Assembly (NCBI GenBank): GCA_964383915.1
Contig: CAYLJE010000003.1
Span: 1 to 62,927, forward strand
DNA length: 62,927 bases
Direction of reading: 5' to 3'
Origin: an uncultured Rikenellaceae bacterium
GTDB lineage: Bacteria; Bacteroidota; Bacteroidia; Bacteroidales; VadinHA17
Numbering within the stretch: the first letter of the stretch is position 1; each line of letters opens with the position of its first letter. Position numbers and translations under genes: made by a program. Below the pieces are notes generated by a model. That model was not told the origin of the DNA, made no database searches, and saw only the letters and a program-made list of their open reading frames with translations. Shown here piece by piece: positions 1,427 through 39,682 of the stretch.

Positions 1427-2944
1427 ATGAAGAAAATTGAAAGTGCATTAATATCCGTTTATCATAAAGAAGGGATAGATGAAGTTGTCAGGGAACTTAA
1501 TGAGTTGAATGTCAGAATCTATTCTACCGGTGGCACACAAAAATATATCAGTGATCTTGGGGTTCCCGTTACCGCAGTAGAAGAAATGACCACTTATCCA
1601 TCCATTCTGGGAGGCAGGGTGAAAACATTACATCCGAAAGTTTTTGGGGGAATACTGGCACGAAGGGAAAACATACAGGATGAGGAAGATCTTAAGAAAT
1701 TTGAAATACCTGAAATTGATCTTGTGATCGTAGATTTATATCCTTTTGAAGAAGCTGTCCGGTCAGGGGCTGAGGAAGTGTCTGCTATTGAGAAAATTGA
1801 TATCGGGGGGATTGCCCTGATCAGAGCTGCTGCAAAAAATTTCCATGATATCCTGGTTGTGTCAAATAAAGGACAATACAGGCATCTTCTGGACCTGCTT
1901 GAAGAAAAAAAGGGGAAGACCACCCTGGAGGAAAGGAAACTTTTTGCTGTTGAAGCTTTCCAGGTGAGTTCACATTATGATACAAACATATTTAACTGGT
2001 TTAACCGTGGAATAGGTATCCCTGTTTTTAAACAAAGTATTCCGTCAGGGCGTAAAATGCGTTATGGAGAGAATCCTCATCAGAAAGCTTATTTCTTTGG
2101 GGAGTTTGCTAAGTGGTTCGATCAGCTTCACGGGAAGGATATCTCCTATAATAACTTGCTTGATATTGATGCTGCCGAAGGATTGATCGCTGAATTTTCG
2201 GAGACGGTTTTTGCAGTTTTTAAACATAATAATGCTTGCGGTGCTGCTGTACGGGACACATTGACGGAAGCCTGGACTGATGCACTGGCCGGTGATCCGG
2301 TGTCTGCTTTTGGAGGGATTCTGGCTACCAATCGTACGGTGGATGAAAAGACTGCAGCCGGCATGAACAAACTCTTTTTCGAAGTGGTAATTGCTTCCGG
2401 TTATACACCGGAGGCGCTGGATATATTGAAGACGAAAAAGAAAAGGATTATCCTGAAGCGTAAAAACCCCGATTTCCCTGACCATCTTTACCGGACTGCC
2501 CTGAATGGAGTATTGCTGCAGGACAGGGATACAAAAACAGAAGGTGCATCCGATATGAAACCGGTTACCCATCACAAACCGACGGGAAAAGAAATTGAAG
2601 ACATGATCTTTGCCAATATTCTCGTGAAACATTCAAAATCCAATGCTATTGTGTTGGTGAAAAACAAACAATTGTTGGGACATGGTATCGGCCAGACTTC
2701 CCGGGTGGATGCCCTGAAACAGGCAGTGGAAAAAGCACGTCGTTTTGGGTTTGATCTGCAGGGGGCGGTAATGGCCTCTGATGCATTTTTCCCTTTTGCC
2801 GATTCGGTGCAATTGGCCCATGAAGCCGGTATTACTGCCGTTATTCAACCCGGAGGATCTATCAGGGATCAGGAATCAATTGACTATTGCAATGAACATA
2901 ATGTGGCAATGGTTTTTACAGGAGTCAGACATTTTAAACATTAA
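1427..2944 (+). CDS. purH: Bifunctional AICAR transformylase/IMP cyclohydrolase
   Basis: STGGT, GGRVKTLHP, IDIGG, RYGENPHQ, FKHNNACG, ASDAFFPF and IQPGGSIRD motifs. Confidence 0.97.
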   Translation: MKKIESALISVYHKEGIDEVVRELNELNVRIYSTGGTQKYISDLGVPVTAVEEMTTYPSILGGRVKTLHPKVFGGILARRENIQDEEDLKKFEIPEIDLVIVDLYPFEEAVRSGAEEVSAIEKIDIGGIALIRAAAKNFHDILVVSNKGQYRHLLDLLEEKKGKTTLEERKLFAVEAFQVSSHYDTNIFNWFNRGIGIPVFKQSIPSGRKMRYGENPHQKAYFFGEFAKWFDQLHGKDISYNNLLDIDAAEGLIAEFSETVFAVFKHNNACGAAVRDTLTEAWTDALAGDPVSAFGGILATNRTVDEKTAAGMNKLFFEVVIASGYTPEALDILKTKKKRIILKRKNPDFPDHLYRTALNGVLLQDRDTKTEGASDMKPVTHHKPTGKEIEDMIFANILVKHSKSNAIVLVKNKQLLGHGIGQTSRVDALKQAVEKARRFGFDLQGAVMASDAFFPFADSVQLAHEAGITAVIQPGGSIRDQESIDYCNEHNVAMVFTGVRHFKH

Positions 2945-2971: not shown

Positions 2972-3994
2972 ATGGGACTTTTTTCATTATTGATGCAGGA
3001 AATTGCGCTTGACCTGGGTACTGCCAATACGATTATTATTTATAACGATAAGATTTTAGTGGACGAACCGTCCATAGTGGCTATGGATAAAGCCAGTGGA
3101 AAATTAATAGCAATAGGGAAAAGAGCCCGGCAGATGCAGGGTAAAACTCCTGAACACATTAAGACCATCCGTCCGTTGCGGGATGGGGTCATTGCTGATT
3201 TTGATGCTGCCGAGTTGATGATCCGGGGAATGATAAAAATGACCAATTCCAAACCGAGATTATTTAATCCTGCCTTGCGCATAGTGGTGTGTATTCCTTC
3301 GGGGAGTACAGAGGTAGAGATTCGTGCTGTAAGGGATTCTTCCGAACATGCCGGCGGACGTGATGTGTATATGATTTACGAACCTATGGCTGCTGCCATC
3401 GGTATCGGTATTGATGTGGAAGCTCCTGAAGGAAGTATGGTTGTGGATATTGGAGGAGGAACCACGGAGATAGCCGTGATCGCCCTCGGAGGCATCGTTA
3501 CCAACAAGTCTATACGGATTGCCGGAGATGGATTTACCGCAGATATACAGGCATATATGAGACATCAGCACAATATTAAAGTGGGTGAGCGGACGGCTGA
3601 GGATATAAAAATTAATGTGGGTTCAGCCTTACCGGATTTGGATGATCCGCCACAGGATTATGTGGTCAGGGGTCCTAACCTGATGACTGCTCTGCCCATT
3701 GAAGTGCCTGTCTCTTATCAGGAAGTGGCTCACTGTCTGGATAAATCGATCTCAAAAATTGAAACAGCTATTTTAGGTGTGCTGGAACAAACTCCCCCTG
3801 AACTGTATGCTGATGTCGTTTCTCACGGGATTTATCTGGCAGGGGGGGGAGCTCTGCTGAGAGGCTTGGATAAACGTTTGACGGATAAGATTAATATCCC
3901 TTTCCATATTGCTGAAGATCCTTTACATGCTGTGGCCAGAGGCACCGGTATAGCCTTAAAAAATGTAGATGAATTTTCTTTTCTGATGAGATAA
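2972..3994 (+). CDS. mreB: Rod shape-determining protein MreB
   Basis: DLGTANT, EPMAAAIG, VDIGGGTTE and LAGGGALL actin-like motifs. Confidence 0.97.
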   Translation: MGLFSLLMQEIALDLGTANTIIIYNDKILVDEPSIVAMDKASGKLIAIGKRARQMQGKTPEHIKTIRPLRDGVIADFDAAELMIRGMIKMTNSKPRLFNPALRIVVCIPSGSTEVEIRAVRDSSEHAGGRDVYMIYEPMAAAIGIGIDVEAPEGSMVVDIGGGTTEIAVIALGGIVTNKSIRIAGDGFTADIQAYMRHQHNIKVGERTAEDIKINVGSALPDLDDPPQDYVVRGPNLMTALPIEVPVSYQEVAHCLDKSISKIETAILGVLEQTPPELYADVVSHGIYLAGGGALLRGLDKRLTDKINIPFHIAEDPLHAVARGTGIALKNVDEFSFLMR

Positions 3995-31442: not shown

Positions 31443-32693
31443 ATGCATGAAGAACTGGAACAAAAGGGAAAAAAAGCCAAAAAAGCGAGTATTTTTTTAC
31501 GTGCAGCGAACACAGCAAATAAGGACAAAGCTCTTCTCAAGGCTGCAGGCCTGTTGAGAATAAAAGCGAAAGAGATTCTGGATGCCAATAGTCGCGATGT
31601 GGAAGAGGCAAAAAGAAACAATATCAGTGGAGCTTTTCTCGACAGGCTGGTACTCAATACTGACCGTATTGAGAGTATGGCAGAGGGATTGGAAGAGGTG
31701 ACTGCCCTGCATGATCCTGTGGGAGAGGTTGTCTCGATGGTAAAAAGACCCAACGGCCTGATGATCGGGAAACAGCGGGTTCCTATCGGGGTCATCGGCA
31801 TCATTTATGAATCACGTCCCAATGTGACCGCAGATGCTTTCGGACTTTGCCTGAAGGCTGGGAATGCTTCCCTTTTACGGGGAGGGAAAGAGGCCATCCA
31901 CTCAAACCAGGCTATACGTAAAATATTACAGGAGGCCCTGACAGCCTGTAATTTTCCCGCTGAGGCTGTTCAGGTAGTCGAAGACACTTCACGTGAGAGT
32001 GCAAGGGAGATGATGAAGATGAATAAATACCTGGACCTGCTGATCCCGCGGGGAGGGGCAGGTCTGATTCGGACTGTCGTGGAAAACAGTTCTGTACCTG
32101 TGATTGAGACAGGCGTTGGGAACTGTCATGTATTTGTGGATAAATATGCTGATTTTGAAAAGGCTGTCGCTATTACGGTCAATGCCAAGACCCATCGTCC
32201 GGGGGTGTGCAATGCAGCAGAGACCCTTTTGGTGCACAGAGATATTGCAGATACTTTTATCCCGGCAGTGTGTCAGGCGCTGGCGGATAAAAAAGTAGAG
32301 ATCAGGGGAGATAAAACGGTAATAAAATATTACCCGGACGCTGTTCCGGCGACCGAAAAAGACTGGGGAACCGAATACCTCGACCTTATTCTGGCCGTAA
32401 AAACTGTTGACTCTCTTGACGAAGCCATTGACCATATCTCCAAATACGGGACAGGTCATTCGGAAAGCATTGTAACGGAAAATTATACCCATGCCCAGGA
32501 TTTTTTGAATCGTATTGATGCAGCTGCCGTTTATGTCAATGCTTCTACCCGGTTTACTGACGGTTACGAATTCGGTTTCGGAGCAGAAATCGGTATCAGT
32601 ACCCAGAAACTACATGCCCGTGGGCCAATGGGCCTGAACGAATTGACGAGCAACAAATACATTATATATGGGAACGGCCAGATCCGGGAGTAA
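31443..32693 (+). CDS. proA: Gamma-glutamyl phosphate reductase
   Basis: GIIYESRPNV, RPGVCNAAET, NASTRFTDG and HARGPMGL motifs. Confidence 0.96.
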   Translation: MHEELEQKGKKAKKASIFLRAANTANKDKALLKAAGLLRIKAKEILDANSRDVEEAKRNNISGAFLDRLVLNTDRIESMAEGLEEVTALHDPVGEVVSMVKRPNGLMIGKQRVPIGVIGIIYESRPNVTADAFGLCLKAGNASLLRGGKEAIHSNQAIRKILQEALTACNFPAEAVQVVEDTSRESAREMMKMNKYLDLLIPRGGAGLIRTVVENSSVPVIETGVGNCHVFVDKYADFEKAVAITVNAKTHRPGVCNAAETLLVHRDIADTFIPAVCQALADKKVEIRGDKTVIKYYPDAVPATEKDWGTEYLDLILAVKTVDSLDEAIDHISKYGTGHSESIVTENYTHAQDFLNRIDAAAVYVNASTRFTDGYEFGFGAEIGISTQKLHARGPMGLNELTSNKYIIYGNGQIRE

Positions 32694-32713
32694 TCAGGGG
32701 AATGAATTTTTTA

Positions 32714-32721
32714 TAATTTTG
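32714..32721 (+). promoter_or_regulatory. Bacteroidetes -7 element (TAATTTTG) upstream of the DUF4491/uORF/TonB-receptor unit
   Basis: Exact TAnnTTTG match about 50 nt before the ATG at 32774. Confidence 0.5.
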
Positions 32722-32773
32722 CCAATAAATATCTGTTTGTATTATTCAAAATTTAATCCTGTTTATACCCCTT

Positions 32774-33067
32774 ATGCCGAACATGAATATTGATGGTTTT
32801 CTTTTGGGATTATTTGTATTTTTTCTCATTGGTTTATTCCATCCCATTGTCATTAAAATGGAATATTATTTTGGAAAGGGTTATTGGTGGATACTATGCT
32901 TTCCCGGAATAATATTTGTGTTTGCTTCCTTATTTTTGCAGGGGATATATTCTATGGGGGCGGGCCTTATCGGTTTTGTATTGTTGTGGAGTACTCAAGA
33001 ACTTTTTAAACAACATCAAAGGGTAAAAAAAGGACAGGCACGAAAAAACCCGAAAAGAACTTACTAA
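32774..33067 (+). CDS. DUF4491-like small membrane protein, copy 1
   Basis: FLIGLFHPIVIKMEYYFG and WSTQELFKQHQRV..KNPKR, three TM helices. Confidence 0.8.
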   Translation: MPNMNIDGFLLGLFVFFLIGLFHPIVIKMEYYFGKGYWWILCFPGIIFVFASLFLQGIYSMGAGLIGFVLLWSTQELFKQHQRVKKGQARKNPKRTY

Positions 33068-33068
33068 T

Positions 33069-33380
33069 ATGATTCTCATTGTTTTATTGCATTCTTTTCA
33101 TCTGGATGGAATTGTCTTAGGCGGGGCAACATATATCATTATTCTGTTAGGAAGATATTCCTGTATTGCCGGAGAATATTATTTCACGAAGAAAATCTGG
33201 AAGCTGTTTCTGGGACTTGGTCTGTTATCATTAGTGTTGTCTTTGTTTGTTTCCAATTTAATGCTTTCCGGCATATTATCTATTACGGGATTTACGTATC
33301 TTTGGGGCATAAAAGAAGTGATAGAACAGGAAAAACGGGTTCATAAAGGTTGGTTTCCCAAAAACCCTAAAAGGAGATAA
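33069..33380 (+). CDS. DUF4491-like small membrane protein, copy 2
   Basis: GEYYFTKKIW and LWGIKEVIEQEKRVHKGWFPKNPKRR; paralog of the upstream gene. Confidence 0.8.
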   Translation: MILIVLLHSFHLDGIVLGGATYIIILLGRYSCIAGEYYFTKKIWKLFLGLGLLSLVLSLFVSNLMLSGILSITGFTYLWGIKEVIEQEKRVHKGWFPKNPKRR

Positions 33381-33381
33381 A

Positions 33382-33774
33382 ATGTTTTTCAGTGGCATAT
33401 TCTCGTCTCATGTAGCATTCATTGCCATGTATGCGGGATTCCTGTATTATATTTTGCAGGCTGTCACTTTTGGTATTCAAAAAAGTGATAAAATCTTTCC
33501 TGCCCAACCCAAAGCCCAGGAACAGTCCGTTCTTTTTTCAGGGGAAAACATAGATGTCGTTTTACTTCGTGCCTATCAACCGGAGAACTTTACGAAGGAT
33601 AAACAAGAATCAACACACATTGAGAAAACGCTTCGTATTTATTCTTTTTATTTTCTATATCATTTTATTTCACTGTATATTCCTTACTCAGGAGGGAAAT
33701 ATCTGCAGTATTTTCTAAAAGCCATTTCTTTACGGGCTCCTCCTTTGTTTTCATTTTTTAGCAGCTTTAAATAA
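33382..33774 (+). CDS. Candidate RAPP-type translation-arrest leader protein upstream of a TonB-dependent receptor
   Basis: 130 aa with an N-terminal hydrophobic segment and SLRAPP at aa 116-121 (RAPP codons 33733-33744), 9 aa before the stop. Confidence 0.6.
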   Translation: MFFSGIFSSHVAFIAMYAGFLYYILQAVTFGIQKSDKIFPAQPKAQEQSVLFSGENIDVVLLRAYQPENFTKDKQESTHIEKTLRIYSFYFLYHFISLYIPYSGGKYLQYFLKAISLRAPPLFSFFSSFK

Positions 33775-33790
33775 ATATCCTGTATTCTTT

Positions 33791-33840
33791 TTTATCCGGT
33801 TCCCATAGAAGGCAACATTCCTTCTGTGGGGAAGGATAAA
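33791..33840 (+). terminator. Long imperfect stem-loop between the RAPP ORF and the receptor (attenuator-like)
   Basis: tttatcc-ggt-tcccatagaagg-caacatt-ccttctgtgggga-a-ggataaa. No 3' U tract, so not a classic intrinsic terminator on the + strand. Confidence 0.55.
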
Positions 33841-33883
33841 GGTTTATAGGGTTCCCATTTTATAATATTTAAATAATAGAACA

Positions 33884-35977
33884 ATGAAAACATTTGTCAT
33901 AATTGTATTTATATTAATAACAGTTTCATTAGAAGCTTTTCCCCAGAAAAATTTTATGGTTGTTGACACAACCCGGGCTATTGCCTTAAAAGAAGTTATA
34001 ATACAAGCGGAGAAATCAGATGAAAAACTTCAAAAAATCCCGGCTTCTGCCAGTTTGATTTCTCAGCAGCGGATTCAGGTGCAGGAAATACAAGCGCTTA
34101 CTGATTTAAGTGCCAGGATACCTGATTTTTTTATACCTGACTATGGTACCCGTCTGACAACCCCTGTTTATATCAGGGGCATCGGTTCCCGGATAGGGGC
34201 TCCTTCTGTTGGACTGTATGTAGATAATATCCCTTATTTCGACAGAGGTTCTTTTAACTTTCAATTTTTAGATCTTAAAAAAATAGAAGTCTTACGGGGT
34301 CCTCAGGGAACATTGTATGGCAGGAATACCATGGGGGGTTTGATCAAAATTTATACCACAGATCCGACAAACAAGCAGGAGGGGGACCTGAGGGTTAACT
34401 ATGGTAATGATAATCAGATCCATACAATGTTCAGGTTTAATCAGCCGGTAAGTAAAAAAATGCAGGTGTTATTGGATGGATCCTTTCTGCATCGGGATGG
34501 TTTTTTTACCAATACATTCAATAATAAGAAAGCAGATGGTTTGAATACGTGGTCGGGACGCATAAAGATGGCTTATCATGCTTCCCGTAAAATGAAAATT
34601 ATATGCTCGGCGGATTATGAAAAGAATGACCAAAACGGTTATCCTTACGGGTTATATAACGATTCCTTGCAAACAGGCAATCCCGTAAATTATAATCAAC
34701 CCAGTGCATATAATCGTGATTTGTTTTCATCCGGCTTGAATGTCAATTATATTGGAAACAGGTTTATTGTCAGCACGGCAACCAGTTACCAATATCTGAA
34801 TGATCATCAGAGAATTGACCAGGATTTTTTACCTGTATCGTTATTTTATGTTAGGCAAGACAGAATCCATCATACGGTGGCACAGGAGTTTACCATTCAT
34901 TCAAAAAATAATGTACGACTCCAGTGGCTGGCAGGTGCTTTTGGTTTTTTACGTTTTAAGAACAAACAGGTTGGGGTAGATTTTGACGGAATCTATAATA
35001 CAAGATATCATTTACAGAATAAAAACAAAACATACAATCAACCAACGAAAGGAGCCGCAATATATGGGCAAGTATCTTATCCTTTCTGGAAATTTACAGT
35101 AACGGGAGGATTAAGAATGGATTATGAAGTGTCCCGGTTGGCATATAATTACGATCTGGTTCTTACAACAAGTGATACTATACATACAAATTTTGATCAT
35201 CATCTGCAATTTACTCAGATCCTTCCAAAGATTACTGTATCTTTTCCGTTAAAGGAGAATATTAATACATACGTTGCTGTTACCAGGGGATATAAAACAG
35301 GAGGTTTTAATTCTACCTTTGAACGGAAAGAAGACCAAACGTATGCTCCGGAATACAGCATAAATTATGAAACAGGGATAAAATCCTCTTTATATCATAA
35401 CAGGGTCAAAGCCAATCTGTGTCTTTTCTATATAGATTGGCGTAATCAACAGGTATATCAGCCTATCCCCAGCGGACAAGGTGCTATGCTAAAGAATGCC
35501 GGCCATTCAATCAGCAGGGGCGTTGAAATTGAACTACTTGCCATGGTGTATAAGAATCTTGAAGTCTGGACAAGTTTCGGATATAATCATGCGCAATACC
35601 TTCATTATAAGAAAGACTCTCTCCATATATATGATGGAAACCATCTCGTTTATATTCCATCCTTTACCTTGAATGCCGGATTTGATTATTCGATATATCT
35701 CTCCAATACTTCTCCGATAAAAAAAATATTGTTGAATATGAACTATCAACGTCTTGGGAGAATGTATTGGAATGATTCGAATACAGCATATCAGGATGAC
35801 TACGGATTACTCAATGGAAGATTATCTTTTGAAGCAAAAAAAATGGCTGTGGGCCTATGGAGTAAAAACATGTTGAATGCCAGATATTATTCATTTTATT
35901 TTGAAGAGCTTGGAAATGCTTATGTACAACAGGGGACCCCATTTCAGATAGGTCTTTTTATCCAAAAGAAATTCTAA
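33884..35977 (+). CDS. TonB-dependent receptor (iron-siderophore/FyuA-like plug)
   Basis: Signal peptide, plug motifs YIRGIG, GLYVDNIP and IEVLRGPQGTLYGRNTMGG, C-terminal F. Confidence 0.92.
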   Translation: MKTFVIIVFILITVSLEAFPQKNFMVVDTTRAIALKEVIIQAEKSDEKLQKIPASASLISQQRIQVQEIQALTDLSARIPDFFIPDYGTRLTTPVYIRGIGSRIGAPSVGLYVDNIPYFDRGSFNFQFLDLKKIEVLRGPQGTLYGRNTMGGLIKIYTTDPTNKQEGDLRVNYGNDNQIHTMFRFNQPVSKKMQVLLDGSFLHRDGFFTNTFNNKKADGLNTWSGRIKMAYHASRKMKIICSADYEKNDQNGYPYGLYNDSLQTGNPVNYNQPSAYNRDLFSSGLNVNYIGNRFIVSTATSYQYLNDHQRIDQDFLPVSLFYVRQDRIHHTVAQEFTIHSKNNVRLQWLAGAFGFLRFKNKQVGVDFDGIYNTRYHLQNKNKTYNQPTKGAAIYGQVSYPFWKFTVTGGLRMDYEVSRLAYNYDLVLTTSDTIHTNFDHHLQFTQILPKITVSFPLKENINTYVAVTRGYKTGGFNSTFERKEDQTYAPEYSINYETGIKSSLYHNRVKANLCLFYIDWRNQQVYQPIPSGQGAMLKNAGHSISRGVEIELLAMVYKNLEVWTSFGYNHAQYLHYKKDSLHIYDGNHLVYIPSFTLNAGFDYSIYLSNTSPIKKILLNMNYQRLGRMYWNDSNTAYQDDYGLLNGRLSFEAKKMAVGLWSKNMLNARYYSFYFEELGNAYVQQGTPFQIGLFIQKKF

Positions 35978-35980
35978 GTT

Positions 35981-36175
35981 ATGGTTAAATCACCTGTCAG
36001 TAAATACATTACATTACTGAACCTGTATCTGGCCCAGTCGATTCCGATGAGTTTCTTCTCTACGGTACTTCCCGTGATTATGCGTACGGAACACTACTCG
36101 TTAACCTCTATCGACGATACAGGATATTCCCACCGATTTTATACCGGGAAACAGACTCATTTACAAAACCAATAA
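35981..36175 (+). pseudogene. 5' fragment of an AmpG/RhtX/FptX-family MFS permease, truncated after about 44 codons
   Basis: LYLAQSIPMSFFSTVLPVIMR matches TM1 of this family. The expected GLLQL.KLPW.LK continuation is replaced by unrelated sequence after about 36113. Confidence 0.75.
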
Positions 36176-36185
36176 CATATACATC

Positions 36186-37559
36186 ATGAATATACCTAAG
36201 TCCCTCATCAAAAAATACAACGTGCCGGTACCACGCTATACCAGCTATCCCCCGGCTAATTTTTTTCATAGTAGATTTACCGGAGAGGATATTAGAAAAA
36301 CGATTATCAACTCCAATGCAGATCAGCCGGAAAATATTTCGCTATATATTCATATTCCGTTTTGTGCCAGATTGTGTCTCTATTGTGCCTGTAACACATA
36401 CATTTCACATGATAAAACGCTGATTCGCCAATATATAAAGACGTTAAAACAGGAAATATTGTTGGTAAGGGATCTGCTTAATTCCGAACGAAGGGTGTCT
36501 CAGGTACATTGGGGTGGAGGGACTCCTAATTATCTTCCTGCTAATTATATACAGGAAATCATGGATCTCCTGTATAAGCATTTTCGCTTTATTCCACAGC
36601 CGGAGATTGCCATGGAATGTCATCCGGCACATCTAACATACGATTATTTGGATAAACTGGATACATTGGGATTTAATCGTTTAAGTGTCGGTATTCAGGA
36701 TTTTAAAGAAGAGGTTCTGAAAAATGTCAACAGAGCATTACCGAATTTGCCGGTTGAAGAAATAGTTACTTTTCTGCATAAACGAAATATTTCGGTGAAT
36801 CTGGATTTTGTTTACGGTTTGCCCGGACAAACCACGGAAAGTTTTCGTAAGACCATAAAAAAAGCAGTAAATATTGCTCCCGACCGGTTGGCATTATTCT
36901 CTTATGCCCATGTGCCTTGGATTAAACCGTATCAGAAACTTCTGGAAAAATATGTTCTGCCGGATGCCGGGCTCAAAACTGCTTTGTTTGAAACAGCTTA
37001 TAAAATTTTAACGGATAATGACTATGTGTCGATTGGTTTAGACCATTTTGCAAAACCGGTAGATGAATTGAGCCTTGCGCTTGCAAATAAAACATTAAGT
37101 CGAAATTTTCAGGGTTATTGCACACGGCGAACGACCGGACAAGTGTATGCTTTTGGGGTAAGCGGTATCAGTCAGTTGAGCACTGGCTATTTGCAAAATA
37201 CAAAAGATTTAAAAGTGTACCGTGAAAGTATCGGAAAAGGTATTTTCCCTTTTGAAAAGGCCTATTTTTTAAATAAAAATGAGAAACTGATCAGGTACAT
37301 CATTACCGAAATCATGAGCAATCGATATATTTCTTTTGAGGCCATTGAAAAGCGGTTCAACCGCTCTTATGATACCATCCTGGATATTACCGGACTTGAC
37401 TTTGATAGACTTAAAGCATTTGAACAAGAGGGGCTTATAGAGATTTCCGGTAAGGAAATTTCAGTAACACATCAAGGGATGTTCTTTTTACGGAATATTG
37501 CATCTTCTTTTGATCCCTTAATTAAACAGACAGACAAACAATTTTCTAAATCTTTGTAA
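36186..37559 (+). CDS. hemN: Oxygen-independent coproporphyrinogen III oxidase
   Basis: PRYTSYP, HIPFCARLCLYCAC (CxxxCxxC), VHWGGGTP and RNFQGY motifs of true HemN. Confidence 0.93.
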   Translation: MNIPKSLIKKYNVPVPRYTSYPPANFFHSRFTGEDIRKTIINSNADQPENISLYIHIPFCARLCLYCACNTYISHDKTLIRQYIKTLKQEILLVRDLLNSERRVSQVHWGGGTPNYLPANYIQEIMDLLYKHFRFIPQPEIAMECHPAHLTYDYLDKLDTLGFNRLSVGIQDFKEEVLKNVNRALPNLPVEEIVTFLHKRNISVNLDFVYGLPGQTTESFRKTIKKAVNIAPDRLALFSYAHVPWIKPYQKLLEKYVLPDAGLKTALFETAYKILTDNDYVSIGLDHFAKPVDELSLALANKTLSRNFQGYCTRRTTGQVYAFGVSGISQLSTGYLQNTKDLKVYRESIGKGIFPFEKAYFLNKNEKLIRYIITEIMSNRYISFEAIEKRFNRSYDTILDITGLDFDRLKAFEQEGLIEISGKEISVTHQGMFFLRNIASSFDPLIKQTDKQFSKSL

Positions 37560-37560
37560 A

Positions 37561-38898
37561 ATGGAAAAGAATATTGCCATAATAGGAAGCGGAATAACGG
37601 GATTAACAACGGGATACTATCTGAAAAAAGCCGGGATTAATTTTAAAATATATGAAAAAACAAATCATATAGGCGGTGTCATACATACGATTTCCGAAAA
37701 CGGTTTTACTTTTGAAACAGGTCCCAATACAGGAACATTATCAAATATTGAAACCGTAGAACTTTTTGAGCATCTGGCCAATGACTTTGAACTTGAAATA
37801 GCAGATCATACGGCAAAAAGACGTTTGATATTAAAAAACAGCAAATGGCATGCCTTGCCATCAGGTTTGTTTTCCGGAATTTTTACGCCTTTATTTTCTG
37901 TAAAAGATAAATTTCGACTGTTGGGGGAACCATTTCGTAAACCGGGGAAGAATCCGTTTGAAACCATTGCGGAACTGGTTATTCGCAGAATGGGAAAATC
38001 TTTTCTTGATTATGCCGTTGATCCTTTTATTTCAGGAATTTACGCCGGTAATCCGAATTATTTGGTTACGAAATATGCACTTCCGAAATTATATAACCTT
38101 GAACAGACATACGGCAGTTTTATCGGAGGTTCAATAAAAAAAGCCAAAGAGCCGAAAACCGGGCAAGATAAAAAAGTTACAAAAGAAATTTTTTCGGCAA
38201 AAGGCGGCCTGTCTTCCATTGTAAAAGCTTTGGTTAAAAATATCGGAAAGAAAAACATTATTTTAAATGCGGATGTTGAAGTTGTAACAAATAAACAACT
38301 GTATAGTATAGGAGATGAAACCTTTACACATGTGGTAAATACAACAAATGCCGGAGAATTACAGAAATTATTTCCTTTCCTGAGCCAGGAAGATGTTTCT
38401 GATATATCCCATCTGAAGTATGCCCAGGTGGCAGAGATTGCCATCGGGTTTAAAGAATGGAGAGGAATCCATTTGAATGCTTTCGGCGGATTAATTCCTT
38501 CAAAAGAAGGAAGAAATGCTTTGGGAATTTTGTTTATGTCAACTTTATTTAAAAAACGAGCCCCCGAAAATGGGACATTACTAACAACTTTTGTCGGCGG
38601 AACCAAAAAGGAGCAACTTGCAGCGCTGTCGGAAGATGAATTGTTGGAAATACTAAAGCCTGAATTACAAGAATTACTTGGATTGCAAGAATTTAACCCG
38701 GATTTGCTGAAAGTGTTTTATCATAAAAAAGCCATTGCTCAGTATGGGGCCGATAGTGAAAAACGATCGGAAGCAATTAATAAGTTAGAAGGTGAGCATA
38801 AAAATCTGTTCTTGGCAGGAAGTATTCGTGACGGGATCGGGATGGCAGATCGCATAAGGCAAGGCACGGAATTAGCCGGTTTGATTATTAAAAATTAG
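37561..38898 (+). CDS. hemY: HemY-type FAD protoporphyrinogen oxidase
   Basis: IIGSGITGL FAD site, FETGPN, PFISGIYAG and GIGMADRI motifs. Confidence 0.88.
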   Translation: MEKNIAIIGSGITGLTTGYYLKKAGINFKIYEKTNHIGGVIHTISENGFTFETGPNTGTLSNIETVELFEHLANDFELEIADHTAKRRLILKNSKWHALPSGLFSGIFTPLFSVKDKFRLLGEPFRKPGKNPFETIAELVIRRMGKSFLDYAVDPFISGIYAGNPNYLVTKYALPKLYNLEQTYGSFIGGSIKKAKEPKTGQDKKVTKEIFSAKGGLSSIVKALVKNIGKKNIILNADVEVVTNKQLYSIGDETFTHVVNTTNAGELQKLFPFLSQEDVSDISHLKYAQVAEIAIGFKEWRGIHLNAFGGLIPSKEGRNALGILFMSTLFKKRAPENGTLLTTFVGGTKKEQLAALSEDELLEILKPELQELLGLQEFNPDLLKVFYHKKAIAQYGADSEKRSEAINKLEGEHKNLFLAGSIRDGIGMADRIRQGTELAGLIIKN

Positions 38899-39682
38899 GG
38901 TCCGTTTCCTGCTTACGAAAATAGGATTTCAATGCATCAGCAAACCCTTCAAAGGAGCTGAAATCGGTGCCGGTAATTTTAGGCTTTAACCCTGATTGTA
39001 AAGCGGATGACGCCGTATAAGGTCCGAAACAAGCAACCTTTAACTGTGAAAACAGGGTTTCATTATTTAAAAGATATTTTAATGCCTCAATTTCTCCTCC
39101 GCTTGTGAAAGCTATTAAATCATAATCCGATTTTTTGATTTTTTGTAAAATTTTTAATTTTGGATTTTTATTAGGGCGTGTGATATAGGCATCAATTTGT
39201 GTAACTTCTGCAATCGAATTCAATCGTTTAATAAAATCAGGAATAATATCCGGTTCATTGATAATCTCAACCCTCGGCGTTAACACAGCAAGTTTATTCA
39301 TGCTTTTAATCTTTTTTAAAGCACGAAAAATGCCGACCGTGCTTGTTTCTTCTGTTTTTAATTTGCTTGTAAGTTCGAAACGACTTAAAAATTCGGCATC
39401 TTTGCCTATGACAGCAAAGTTTAAAGTTTGTAAGACATTTTTCGAAAGTTTATATTTTTTTGCTTGTTGAACAAAACTTCTGATAGCATTGCGGCTGGGT
39501 AAAATAATATAATCGAAAGTATGAATTTCTTCAAAAAAAACTTTAAAAACCGGATTATCAAATAAAATGGTTTCGATGACAGGAGATTGTAAAACTTCAA
39601 AATTATTTCCGGTCAAAACGGTTTTTAGTTTTTTGTTGTATATTTTTGGAGCAGTGACAATTATTCGTCTTTTTTTATTCAT
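38888..39682 (-). CDS. hemD: Uroporphyrinogen-III synthase
   Basis: IIVTAP start, PVIET, YIILPSRNAI, VIGKDA, YITRP, AFTSGG and CFGPYT motifs; start set at MNKKRR (39682). Confidence 0.75.
   Translation of the reverse strand: MNKKRRIIVTAPKIYNKKLKTVLTGNNFEVLQSPVIETILFDNPVFKVFFEEIHTFDYIILPSRNAIRSFVQQAKKYKLSKNVLQTLNFAVIGKDAEFLSRFELTSKLKTEETSTVGIFRALKKIKSMNKLAVLTPRVEIINEPDIIPDFIKRLNSIAEVTQIDAYITRPNKNPKLKILQKIKKSDYDLIAFTSGGEIEALKYLLNNETLFSQLKVACFGPYTASSALQSGLKPKITGTDFSSFEGFADALKSYFRKQETDPNF

Follow-up and report, generated by a model that had tools for sequence, protein, structure and literature searches.

A conserved Bacteroidales leader family ending in R-x-P-P as a candidate membrane-anchored arrest peptide upstream of a TonB-dependent receptor

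Does a short ORF that ends in a ribosome arrest motif just upstream of a TonB-dependent receptor control that receptor and, if so, by what means? RAPP-type arrest peptides were for a long time associated with the secretion machinery. With CruR and CutF, this type of arrest reached copper homeostasis, and thousands of further cases before TonB-dependent receptors were predicted, but not characterised, in a survey of 2025 (PMC12992588). In the window (the whole stretch of DNA analysed here, 62.9 kb), the original prediction, made from the DNA letters, described a 130-aa ORF with RAPP at residues 118-121, a tail of 9 residues and a receptor starting 109 nt downstream, all of which is confirmed. 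Its core idea, that the ORF is an arrest leader of the RAPP type which would control the receptor gene in cis, is backed by the comparison of related loci given below. The leader and its neighbours were annotated as follows (positions are those of the window).

32714-32721, + strand: weak candidate for a Bacteroidota -7 promoter box, TAATTTTG, 53 nt 5′ of DUF4491 gene a
32774-33067, + strand: DUF4491 gene a, a small membrane protein of 97 aa (Pfam PF14898, E=1.8e-30)
33069-33380, + strand: DUF4491 gene b, 103 aa (Pfam PF14898, E=1.5e-32)
33382-33774, + strand: leader ORF, 130 aa, ATG start (homologues, synteny, dN/dS)
33884-35977, + strand: TonB-dependent receptor, 697 aa (Pfam Plug and TonB_dep_Rec_b-barrel)
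35981-36115, + strand: remnant of an MFS transporter gene, first 45 codons (tblastn)
36186-37559, + strand: hemN, oxygen-independent coproporphyrinogen oxidase type, 457 aa (Pfam Radical_SAM and HemN_C)
37561-38898, + strand: hemY-type protoporphyrinogen-oxidase-like flavoprotein, 445 aa (Pfam Amino_oxidase, E=2.8e-43)

Since the leader ATG begins 1 nt past the stop codon of DUF4491 gene b, the leader is the third cistron here and not the operon head. The DUF4491 pair also lies directly 5′ of the leader in the related loci L001, L004 and L055, and the L056 contig contains just the DUF4491 gene adjoining the leader. In most subfamilies a gap of 60-170 nt precedes the leader, which is probably the first cistron there. 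Related loci usually carry an MFS transporter gene between receptor and hemN; in the window this gene is truncated, and its full-length counterpart in L001 encodes 415 aa and matches MFS_1/Acatn. No NCBIfam model reached its cut-off for the receptor. A scan of 33300-33884 for the pattern TAnnTTTG returned no Bacteroidota -7 box, so that no separate receptor promoter is evident. Rfam searches gave no match in 32500-36500 (E up to 1) other than a chance-level hairpin at 32696-32764, and none in the leader-receptor region of six related loci, and a riboswitch (e.g. cobalamin) or other known cis-regulatory RNA 5′ of the receptor was accordingly rejected. An intrinsic terminator after the leader was rejected as well, the strong intergenic hairpin at 33800-33832 having no U-run behind it. 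No homology between leader and DUF4491 was detected, and neither PADLOC nor PDB sequence searches with the leader profile and with DUF4491 gene b returned a match.

The leader is a real gene of a conserved, unnamed Bacteroidales family. Pfam and NCBIfam had no match for it, and when the ORF on its own was used in a word-based protein search, only the ORF itself came back. Homologues were identified by HMMER among 1.84 billion proteins (E 5e-6 to 7e-5), relatives were located by tblastn at the equivalent position in L001, L055 and L056, and further relatives were recovered by profile searches. In many Bacteroidales lineages these relatives precede orthologous TonB-dependent receptors. Whole-gene dN/dS of the leader is 0.16-0.33, with a pN/pS of 0.13 in the N-terminal segment versus about 0.5 in the linker, and GC content by codon position agrees with that of the neighbouring genes. 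The position of the motif is equally consistent. Among all ORFs of 50 aa or more in the six frames of the window, the leader alone contains RAPP, RGPP or RAGP, and contains it once. At 54 related genome loci, R[AGP]PP was found in the last 14 residues of 16 out of 508 ORFs (80-160 aa), all 16 being on the receptor strand and directly upstream of the receptor. This was replicated in 80 metagenome loci, bringing the related loci to 134, where 9 of 514 ORFs end in the motif and 9/9 are directly upstream of the receptor. The leader-receptor gap varies between 51 and 564 nt across the family, from 51 nt in L014, L015 and L039 to 351-564 nt in L017 and L004.

The motif itself was compared both within the family and with published mutagenesis.

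33733-33744, + strand: RAPP, aa 118-121, codons CGG GCT CCT CCT, 9 residues before the stop codon

R118, P120 and P121 are invariant in a seven-sequence alignment (A1). When 17 sequences over distant subfamilies are aligned, only Met1 and the two prolines are invariant, with Arg and Gly5 nearly so; R118 is absent from a single relative, L040, in which Leu takes its place. A further 38 database proteins keep F-[A/T]-R-P-P-P (leaving out one fragment without a C-terminus), followed by 5 residues in all but one, and motif codons differ synonymously between loci. Orthologs were expected to keep RAPP and receptor adjacency while the rest diverged; they do keep R-x-P-P and the adjacency, along with proximity to the stop codon, and the remainder has indeed diverged. 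In mutagenesis of R-x-P-P, Arg was irreplaceable for arrest, whereas arrest was fully or partly kept with Ala, Gly or Pro at x, and Ser and Asp were partly permissive (PMC12992588). The natural residues at x in the leader family are A, G or P, all of them among the arrest-permissive ones. The L040 relative, with Leu for the Arg that experiment calls irreplaceable, is an observation against arrest. RAPP and RGPP are among the most avoided tetrapeptides of bacterial proteomes (PMC12992588). Judged by its sequence, with the motif near the C-terminus and Arg and Pro conserved in homologues, the leader has the core of a RAPP-like arrest peptide. By analogy with ApdA and ApdP, arrest is predicted with Pro120 (33739-33741) in the P site and Pro121 (33742-33744) in the A site (PMC12992588).

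Upstream of the motif, the most constrained part of the peptide is its N-terminus.

33382-33480, + strand: N-terminal hydrophobic segment, aa 1-33, predicted membrane anchor, MFFSG[IV]FSS conserved

A hydrophobic segment had been anticipated at about residues 10-31; it is present, but extends from residue 1 to about 33. Across the family the segment begins at residue 1 and its best 19-residue hydropathy window is 1.6-2.3, and in an AlphaFold2 model of the leader the sole confidently predicted helix spans residues 3-38. Hydropathy and model together predict an N-terminal membrane-insertion signal. No K/R occurs ahead of the segment and 2-4 K/R lie within 15 residues behind it, a charge distribution that by the positive-inside rule suggests an N-terminus-out, C-terminus-in orientation. 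The spacer between segment and motif measures 73-90 aa across the family (about 85 in the window), and the tail behind the motif 2-9 aa. At 9 residues the tail of the window peptide is unusually long, and it is without the aromatic residue at -2/-3 that is present in relatives. The peptide contains no Cys, as had been stated. Its description as His/Tyr-rich was right for Tyr (11, enriched, as is Phe with 17) and wrong for His, which accounts for only 3 of 130 residues. The C-terminal half is rich in Phe, Tyr, Ile, Leu and Ser, as AT-rich DNA would give. The linker between membrane segment and motif has no conserved column, Cys, His and Tyr included, in the 7- and 17-sequence alignments. Heme or metal sensing through conserved linker His, Cys or Tyr was rejected for want of any such column, and the suggestion that the leader senses heme or iron finds no support.

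Folding of the mRNA predicts pairing between the sequence just 3′ of the arrest site and the receptor start.

33746-33760, + strand: 5′ strand of a helix found in MFE and ensemble folds, of which 33746-33755 perfectly complements 33883-33892
33775-33883, + strand: structured 109-nt intergenic rod, with an inner hairpin (33800-33812 / 33820-33832) and an outer stem (33791-33797 / 33834-33840)
33877-33892, + strand: 3′ strand of the helix, equal to the receptor translation initiation region and including the AUG at 33884-33886

The segment 33733-33900 folds at -49.9 kcal/mol (z=-6.0 versus 200 dinucleotide shuffles), and a perfect helix of 10 bp (33746-33755 : 33883-33892) is predicted to cover the receptor AUG, for which folding gives P(unpaired) of 0.01 in free mRNA. 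Positions 33746-33754 lie +7 to +15 from the P site, within the footprint of a stalled ribosome. With this footprint kept single-stranded in the folding, P(unpaired) for -6 to +8 of the receptor rises from 0.10 to 0.46. The duplex between leader tail and receptor start ranks best among 460 windows along the leader (p=0.015 versus shuffles, 0.046 versus synonymous recodings). As the window helix pairs a U-rich with an A-rich strand, composition contributes and this significance alone is modest. At 13 of 18 loci, where 2.6 were expected, the receptor initiation region has its main pairing partner at most 30 nt from the arrest P site; two of the 13, L061 and L084, are lineages that came to light when the helix had already been noticed. 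Pairing from stall site to start is absent from the folds of L001 (among relatives with a full locus, the one whose leader is closest to that of the window), L017 and L004, and what the helix of L055-57 covers is not the AUG itself but a purine-rich tract 19-44 nt 5′ of it. Applied to seven loci of the MFLPFG subfamily, RNAalifold gave only an internal hairpin. It returned no aligned long-range helix, since the complementary segments, though present, are in registers that shift from member to member. Among close relatives intergenic identity exceeds synonymous-site identity. Metagenomes were scanned with back-translated leader motifs (600 pattern matches, 0 confirmed relatives) and with the receptor, for which no locus was closer than 49% identity, which left the window helix without close relatives for a covariation analysis. 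On these predictions the initiation region downstream would be sequestered by the very sequence that a stalled ribosome occupies, as in a masking leader.

Taking these features together, we lean, with more confidence than doubt, towards the leader being a membrane-anchored arrest peptide whose stalled ribosome would unmask receptor translation, a reading drawn from sequence. The N-terminal hydrophobic segment would insert into the inner membrane co-translationally, and about 85 residues on the ribosome would stall at Arg-Ala-Pro-Pro, as in ApdA, ApdP and SecM. In free mRNA, 33746-33760 would pair with 33877-33892, AUG included, at the base of the intergenic rod. A stalled ribosome would keep 33746-33754 in its mRNA channel and so free the AUG, such that the receptor would be translated only during the stall; expression of hemN and hemY probably follows the receptor. 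A comparable step is described for CutF, where a polyproline stall melts a stem-loop shielding the downstream start (bioRxiv 10.1101/2025.02.05.636593). Output would then be set by whatever lengthens or shortens the stall. Because the membrane segment and the spacer length are conserved and ligand-binding residues are not, the fate of the membrane segment, either insertion and pulling force or a contact within the membrane, is the most likely modulator. From the charge distribution we infer that release may depend on force. The anatomy of the leader (localisation signal, narrow spacer, short tail) resembles that of known monitoring substrates. Spacers of MifM-type N-out substrates are typically roughly 54 aa (PMC10987492), and the 85 aa of the window peptide, being longer, speak against an N-out, force-sensing reading. 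Going further, it is conceivable, and we put it forward as tentative, that the family is a true sensor in which the fate of the membrane segment, set by contact with the DUF4491 pair or with a tetrapyrrole that the receptor takes up and that partitions into the membrane, determines the stall and gates a porphyrin-salvage operon through start-codon unmasking.

The main alternative is attenuation like that of CruR, in which a stall at RAPP keeps Rho off the RNA and permits read-through, and relief of the stall leads to Rho termination in the intergenic region. This is the mechanism of the only characterised RAPP leader before a TonB-dependent transporter (PMC9426467). It would also account for the long-gap loci without start-codon masking. 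The cruR loci typically have long and structured intergenic regions, and those of the leader family measure 51-564 nt. The C/G ratio of the window peaks (2.1) over 78 nt that surround the stall site and the stop codon, but absolute C content there is low (17/78, in an AT-rich locus), and the 51-nt gaps of L014, L015 and L039 leave little room for loading after the stop codon. Nor does a Rho model need the recurrent pairing between stall site and initiation region, and we regard it as unlikely here. Less probable again is a coupling without any sensor, where a constitutive pause at R-x-P-P holds the masking helix open and receptor output simply tracks the upstream cistrons. Such coupling is compatible with the RNA layout observed, with a linker lacking any conserved ligand-binding residue, and with a leader start 1-5 nt from the stop of DUF4491 gene b in the window, L001, L004, L055 and L056. 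It leaves the conservation of the membrane segment (pN/pS 0.13) and of spacer length unexplained, however, and in most subfamilies, with their gap before the leader, there is probably no upstream cistron to track.

We consider it quite improbable that the leader is a functional small inner-membrane protein, e.g. an accessory to DUF4491 or to the MFS transporter, with R-x-P-P as an interaction or degradation tag. The product is indeed conserved, membrane-anchored and encoded in a transport operon, and conservation of its N-terminal 9 residues exceeds the need of a mere anchor. Against this, the middle 80 residues diverge almost freely with no fold predicted, the motif is always 2-9 residues from the stop codon, bacterial proteomes strongly avoid RAPP and RGPP (PMC12992588), and the motif-centred RNA pairing would be a coincidence. 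A chance untranslated ORF in an AT-rich spacer, to which the AT-type composition of the C-terminal half and the first word-based search without homologue might point, is refuted by HMMER homologues with dN/dS <1, conserved frame and motif, the syntenic, receptor-adjacent position of motif ORFs and GC by codon position like that of neighbouring genes.

For the favoured membrane-anchored arrest leader, the closest point of reference is CruR (Bordetella pertussis Bp2923, DUF2946), which precedes BfrG. Both peptides have about 120-130 aa and an N-terminal localisation signal (PMC9426467), both end in RAPP a few residues before the stop codon directly upstream of a TonB-dependent receptor, and both are followed by a structured intergenic region; action in cis is shown for CruR and proposed for the leader. 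The background given in the original prediction on CruR and on ApdA, ApdP and SecM is accurate, per the literature. Homology to CruR/DUF2946 was rejected, as the window ORF and 9 relatives have no Pfam match at E up to 1 and no NCBIfam match. CruR carries an invariant copper-sensing CXXC motif at a fixed distance from RAPP, whereas the leader has no Cys and the family no conserved Cys column. The leader N-terminus is uncharged, hydrophobic from residue 1 and not a signal peptide, unlike that of CruR. CruR heads its operon, whereas the leader is the third cistron behind two DUF4491 genes in the window subfamily, and the genes downstream are copper-related for CruR and tetrapyrrole-related for the leader. 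Finally, CruR works through Rho, while start-codon masking is the better-supported layout at the leader locus. CutF (Rhodobacter capsulatus, DUF2946), with a polyproline stall before cutO, shares PPP with the RPPP variants of the leader family (PMC9973294); it belongs to a separate protein family and has a copper-binding motif, unlike the leader (PMC9973294; bioRxiv 10.1101/2025.02.05.636593). At CutF a Shine-Dalgarno site before a multicopper oxidase gene is shielded, whereas the leader locus would mask the AUG or a tract just 5′ of it. Bacteroidota mostly do without Shine-Dalgarno initiation, and it is in this phylum that the predicted start-codon-masking helix sits.

ApdA, ApdP, SecM and MifM have in common with the leader an R-A/G-P-P core, a localisation signal, a variable linker and an arrest site near the stop codon (PMC7897499, PMC10987492, PMC10951233), together with the idea that a stalled ribosome remodels the downstream mRNA, and there is no sequence similarity beyond the core. 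The leader spacer of 73-90 aa falls between the MifM type (about 54) and the SecM/VemP type (about 130). These peptides control Sec or YidC components, whereas no such gene follows the leader: downstream are the receptor and a heme-pathway cluster of hemN and hemY. Fujiwara et al. (2025, PMC12992588) reported RAPP/RGPP uORFs before TonB-dependent receptors as a class that is enriched throughout the Gram-negative bacteria. The leader fits the definition of that class, with less than 300 aa, a motif near the C-terminus, a localisation signal and a TonB-dependent receptor downstream (PMC12992588). Most uORFs of the class carry signal peptides, and the supplementary rows compared are His/Cys-rich, unlike the leader (PMC12992588). 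In the part of the supplementary tables compared, no leader-family sequence or accession was found, which does not prove absence from the tables as a whole (PMC12992588). As the survey covered RAPP and RGPP only, the RPPP majority of the leader family lies outside it (PMC12992588). The locus had been called the strongest candidate for an undescribed system, which holds for the family but not for the class, already reported (PMC12992588). Since such uORFs are catalogued, the leader represents a new family of a known kind: what is new is the family, and what was known is the arrest principle and the occurrence of RAPP/RGPP uORFs before TonB receptors. Some RGPP-uORF/TonB-receptor rows in the supplementary part compared are presumably from Bacteroidota, judging by accession or locus tag.

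The locus supplies a concrete, conserved, non-DUF2946 family without a metal-binding motif. Ala, Gly and Pro have all been tried by evolution at the variable position of its motif, and the family is found alongside genes of the late heme pathway (receptor, MFS transporter, hemN and hemY). If the favoured reading is true, Bacteroidales would control a probable tetrapyrrole-scavenging system post-transcriptionally, and DUF4491 would gain its first functional lead; the more tentative sensor reading, if true, would add a non-metal, non-Sec use of RAPP arrest. One family member resides in the cultured Marinilabilia salmonicolor JCM 21150 (L017), which makes the hypothesis testable.

The original prediction described a 130-aa ORF with RAPP at residues 118-121, nine residues behind the motif, no Cys, and a receptor starting 109 nt further on; reading of the sequence, the composition count and the domains of the next gene bear this out. 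The features of the locus are listed below.

32774..33067, first DUF4491 gene, upstream of the leader
33069..33380, second DUF4491 gene, in tandem with the first, its stop 1 nt ahead of the leader ATG
33382..33774, + strand, leader ORF, 130 aa, ATG start
33733..33744, + strand, RAPP codons CGG GCT CCT CCT, residues 118-121, then 9 residues
33884..35977, + strand, receptor, Plug and TonB-dependent beta-barrel domains, 109 nt past the leader
35981..36175, 64-codon ORF between receptor and hemN
36186..37559, hemN, downstream of the receptor
37561..38898, protoporphyrinogen-oxidase-like gene (hemY), after hemN
38888..39676, - strand, hemD, uroporphyrinogen-III synthase (PF02602), convergent with hemY

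The N-terminal hydrophobic stretch is present and extends from residue 1 to ~33 rather than over residues ~10-31, and of the supposed His/Tyr richness only the Tyr half holds (Tyr 11 and Phe 17 are frequent; His is 3). No Rfam family matched in the leader/receptor region of the window. Ahead of the leader ATG lies AAGGAGATAAA, with AGGAG 7 nt upstream (33366..33384), overlapping the Arg-Arg-stop codons of the second DUF4491 gene; AGGAGATA is also present before the leader at ~3260..3277 of L001, whose receptor is the most similar among the genome loci (54% identity). To our knowledge, Shine-Dalgarno-like elements are unusual in Bacteroidota. Further upstream, between proA and the first DUF4491 gene, a stable AT-rich hairpin (32696..32764), which may serve as the terminator of proBA, overlaps a candidate -7 box at 32714; its Rfam match to Spy392987 is at chance level only (25 bits versus 47).

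A word-indexed protein search with the window leader gave nothing beyond the leader itself. Exhaustive HMMER comparison with 1.84 billion representatives gave three homologues of 124-126 aa (E 5e-6 to 7e-5), all starting MFFSG[IV]FSS and ending NRAPP plus two residues, and a profile search added two more. The order DUF4491-DUF4491-leader-receptor recurs on the contigs of these homologues and in L001. For the leader as a whole, three close relatives give dN/dS values of 0.29-0.33, and the pair L001/L058 gives 0.16. Split by region, pN/pS is lowest in the N-terminal segment (0.13), higher in the last ten codons (~0.2) and highest in the linker (~0.5). On these data the window leader is a real, conserved gene.

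In a scan of 54 genome loci, many Bacteroidales lineages (Rikenella-like, Prolixibacteraceae, Paludibacter, Marinilabiliaceae, Lentimicrobium) proved to have a homologous leader ahead of the orthologous receptor, while the same upstream scan found none in Bacteroides, Prevotella and Tannerella loci. The family shares an uncharged, hydrophobic N-terminus ([ML]F/LPFG.F..) and ends in F-[S/T/A]-R-P-P-P plus 2-5 residues, in RGPP or in RAPP. In a 17-sequence alignment only Met1 and two prolines are invariant, with the Arg and Gly5 nearly so; as the original prediction would have it for orthologs, R-x-P-P and receptor adjacency are kept across lineages where few other columns are. Profile search retrieved 39 proteins besides the query, 38 of which retain RPPP near the stop, the other being a fragment that lacks the C-terminal end. 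No Pfam domain occurs in any of them, and where a name is given it is 'hypothetical protein'. Because the motif codons vary synonymously (CGG GCT CCT CCT, CGC GCC CCT CCG, CGG GCA CCG CCA, AGA GGC CCT CCA, CGT CCC CCT CCT and others), selection acts on the peptide. Of the 508 ORFs of 80-160 aa read in six frames across the 54 genome loci, 16 carry R[AGP]PP within the last 14 residues, and all 16 lie directly upstream of the receptor on the same strand; a replication on 80 independent metagenome loci gave 9 such ORFs out of 514, again all (9/9) directly upstream. By these comparisons R-x-P-P is the defining feature of the leader family.

The hydrophobic segment starts at residue 1 across the family, with no K/R before it and 2-4 in the 15 residues after, which by the positive-inside rule suggests an N-out/C-in membrane anchor; helix 3-38 is the only part confidently predicted by AlphaFold2 from a shallow alignment. 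The spacer from this segment to the Arg is 73-90 aa and the tail after the motif 2-9 aa. MifM-type N-out substrates have a shorter spacer (median 54, versus ~80 aa here; PMC10987492). In mutagenesis of ApdA/ApdP, the Arg was irreplaceable for arrest, Ala to Gly was fully permissive or stronger, and Ala to Pro, Ser or Asp partly permissive; random libraries also yielded R-x-P-P with x = G, A, S or P, and bacterial proteomes avoid few tetrapeptides as strongly as RAPP and RGPP (PMC12992588). The natural x of the family (A, G, P) falls within this permissive set. Since no residue between membrane segment and motif is conserved in the family alignments, the proposed sensing of heme or iron finds no support in sequence; the conserved membrane segment and narrow spacer point instead to segment insertion, a pulling force or contacts within the membrane as candidate signals.

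Several leaders depart from this pattern. In locus L040 the leader (3497..3856) ends SLPPP, with Leu in place of Arg, and may rely on PPP alone. Both leader and receptor of L042 (~3529..3937) carry frameshifts, which could be assembly errors. The RGPP-ending leaders of L004 (3074..3439) and L022 (3328..3756) occupy the same position upstream of the receptor, and positive charge precedes their hydrophobic segment, the reverse of the charge pattern in the main family; they may have diverged from a common ancestor with it or have arisen independently.

Window positions 33733..33900 fold at -49.9 kcal/mol (z=-6.0), and in both MFE and ensemble folds 33746..33760, beginning two nucleotides past the predicted A-site codon, pairs with 33877..33892, which contains the receptor AUG at 33884; within this helix, 33746..33755 and 33883..33892 are perfectly complementary. 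In free mRNA the AUG has an unpaired probability of 0.01, and holding a modelled ribosome footprint (P site -12 to +15) single-stranded raises the accessibility of -6..+8 from 0.10 to 0.46. Of 460 windows along the leader, none pairs better with the receptor start region than this tail segment. Shuffled sequences reach its duplex energy in 1.5% of cases and synonymous recodings in 4.6%, so base composition (U-rich tail, A-rich start) contributes. The same layout is built from different sequences in other loci, for example CGGUGACA:UGUCACCG (L039), UUCCAUGAUU:AAUCAUGGAA (L010) and CUGCUG:CAGCAG (L008/L012), and in L055-57 a GAGAGAGG tract ahead of the AUG is the partner of the Pro codons CCUCCU; L061 and L084, from lineages recovered only after the helix was noticed, show it too. 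For loci with gaps of at most 210 nt, the main partner of [AUG-45..+11] lies within 30 nt of the arrest P site in 13 of 18, versus 2.6 expected from dinucleotide shuffles. The layout was not found in five short-gap loci or in L001, L017 and L004 (gaps 351-564 nt), and RNAalifold gave no aligned long-range helix in the one subfamily analysed, because registers differ between its members. Close relatives are more alike in the intergenic region (identity 0.82) than at synonymous sites (0.66).

An arrest-peptide leader whose stalled ribosome would unmask the receptor initiation region, is the best-supported model, and we consider it moderately probable; such unmasking has been shown for CutF-cutO (bioRxiv 10.1101/2025.02.05.636593) and for SecM/MifM-type systems. 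The main rival is a CruR-like stall that shields RNA from Rho (PMC9426467), with which the C>G bias around the window stall site and the long-gap loci are both compatible. Weaker still are a sensor-less 'coupling pause' and a leader product serving as a structural small membrane protein.

Apart from the unmasking model, TCCGG/CCGGA is enriched in the leader-receptor spacers of 20 loci (8.6 per kb versus 3.7 in flanks; Poisson p ~4e-5 for a pentamer chosen post hoc), often as ATCCGG...CCGGAT inverted repeats, with the window copy at 33795; it could be a protein operator or a mere stem-forming element.

The claim of an undescribed system stands for the family itself; the RAPP uORF principle and the TonB-receptor class were already known. 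A 2025 survey reports strong enrichment of RAPP and RGPP uORFs upstream of TonB-dependent receptors (5450 and 4450 cases), and the rows listed include RGPP examples from Bacteroidota, judged by accession or locus tag; RPPP, the form mostly found in our family, was outside its search, and no leader-family sequence is among the supplementary rows listed (PMC12992588). CruR and CutF had established the stalling principle with copper genes, whereas the present leaders precede a receptor, MFS, hemN and hemY cluster, have no DUF2946 match and lack CXXC; in the window subfamily the leader follows two DUF4491 genes. Our literature search found no papers on the leader family or on DUF4491.

In nearly all related loci an MFS_1/Acatn-type transporter gene sits between receptor and hemN (full-length in L001, 6097..7344, 415 aa). 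In the window only the first 45 codons remain (35981..36115), running into unrelated sequence and a stop codon; with ~1.1 kb missing, this copy is a pseudogene remnant. The hemD gene is convergent with hemY, which brings the tetrapyrrole genes clustered around the receptor to three. We can only infer a tetrapyrrole substrate, as the window receptor stays below the cut-off of every NCBIfam receptor model. Heme-auxotrophic Bacteroidota retain late heme-pathway genes, for whose products a role in precursor salvage has been discussed as a possibility (PMC13096392). DUF4491 genes, encoding small membrane proteins, are linked to the receptor/hemN/hemY cluster in the window (two tandem copies directly upstream of the leader, 32774..33380), L001, L003 (opposite strand), L004, L034 (a single gene after hemY), L055 and L056, a possible functional lead for DUF4491. 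Rfam search found no whalefall-1 RNA motif (RF01762) in the window; in L001 one lies just upstream of the first DUF4491 gene (2432..2485; 36.8 bits versus a gathering score of 37, E=4e-6).
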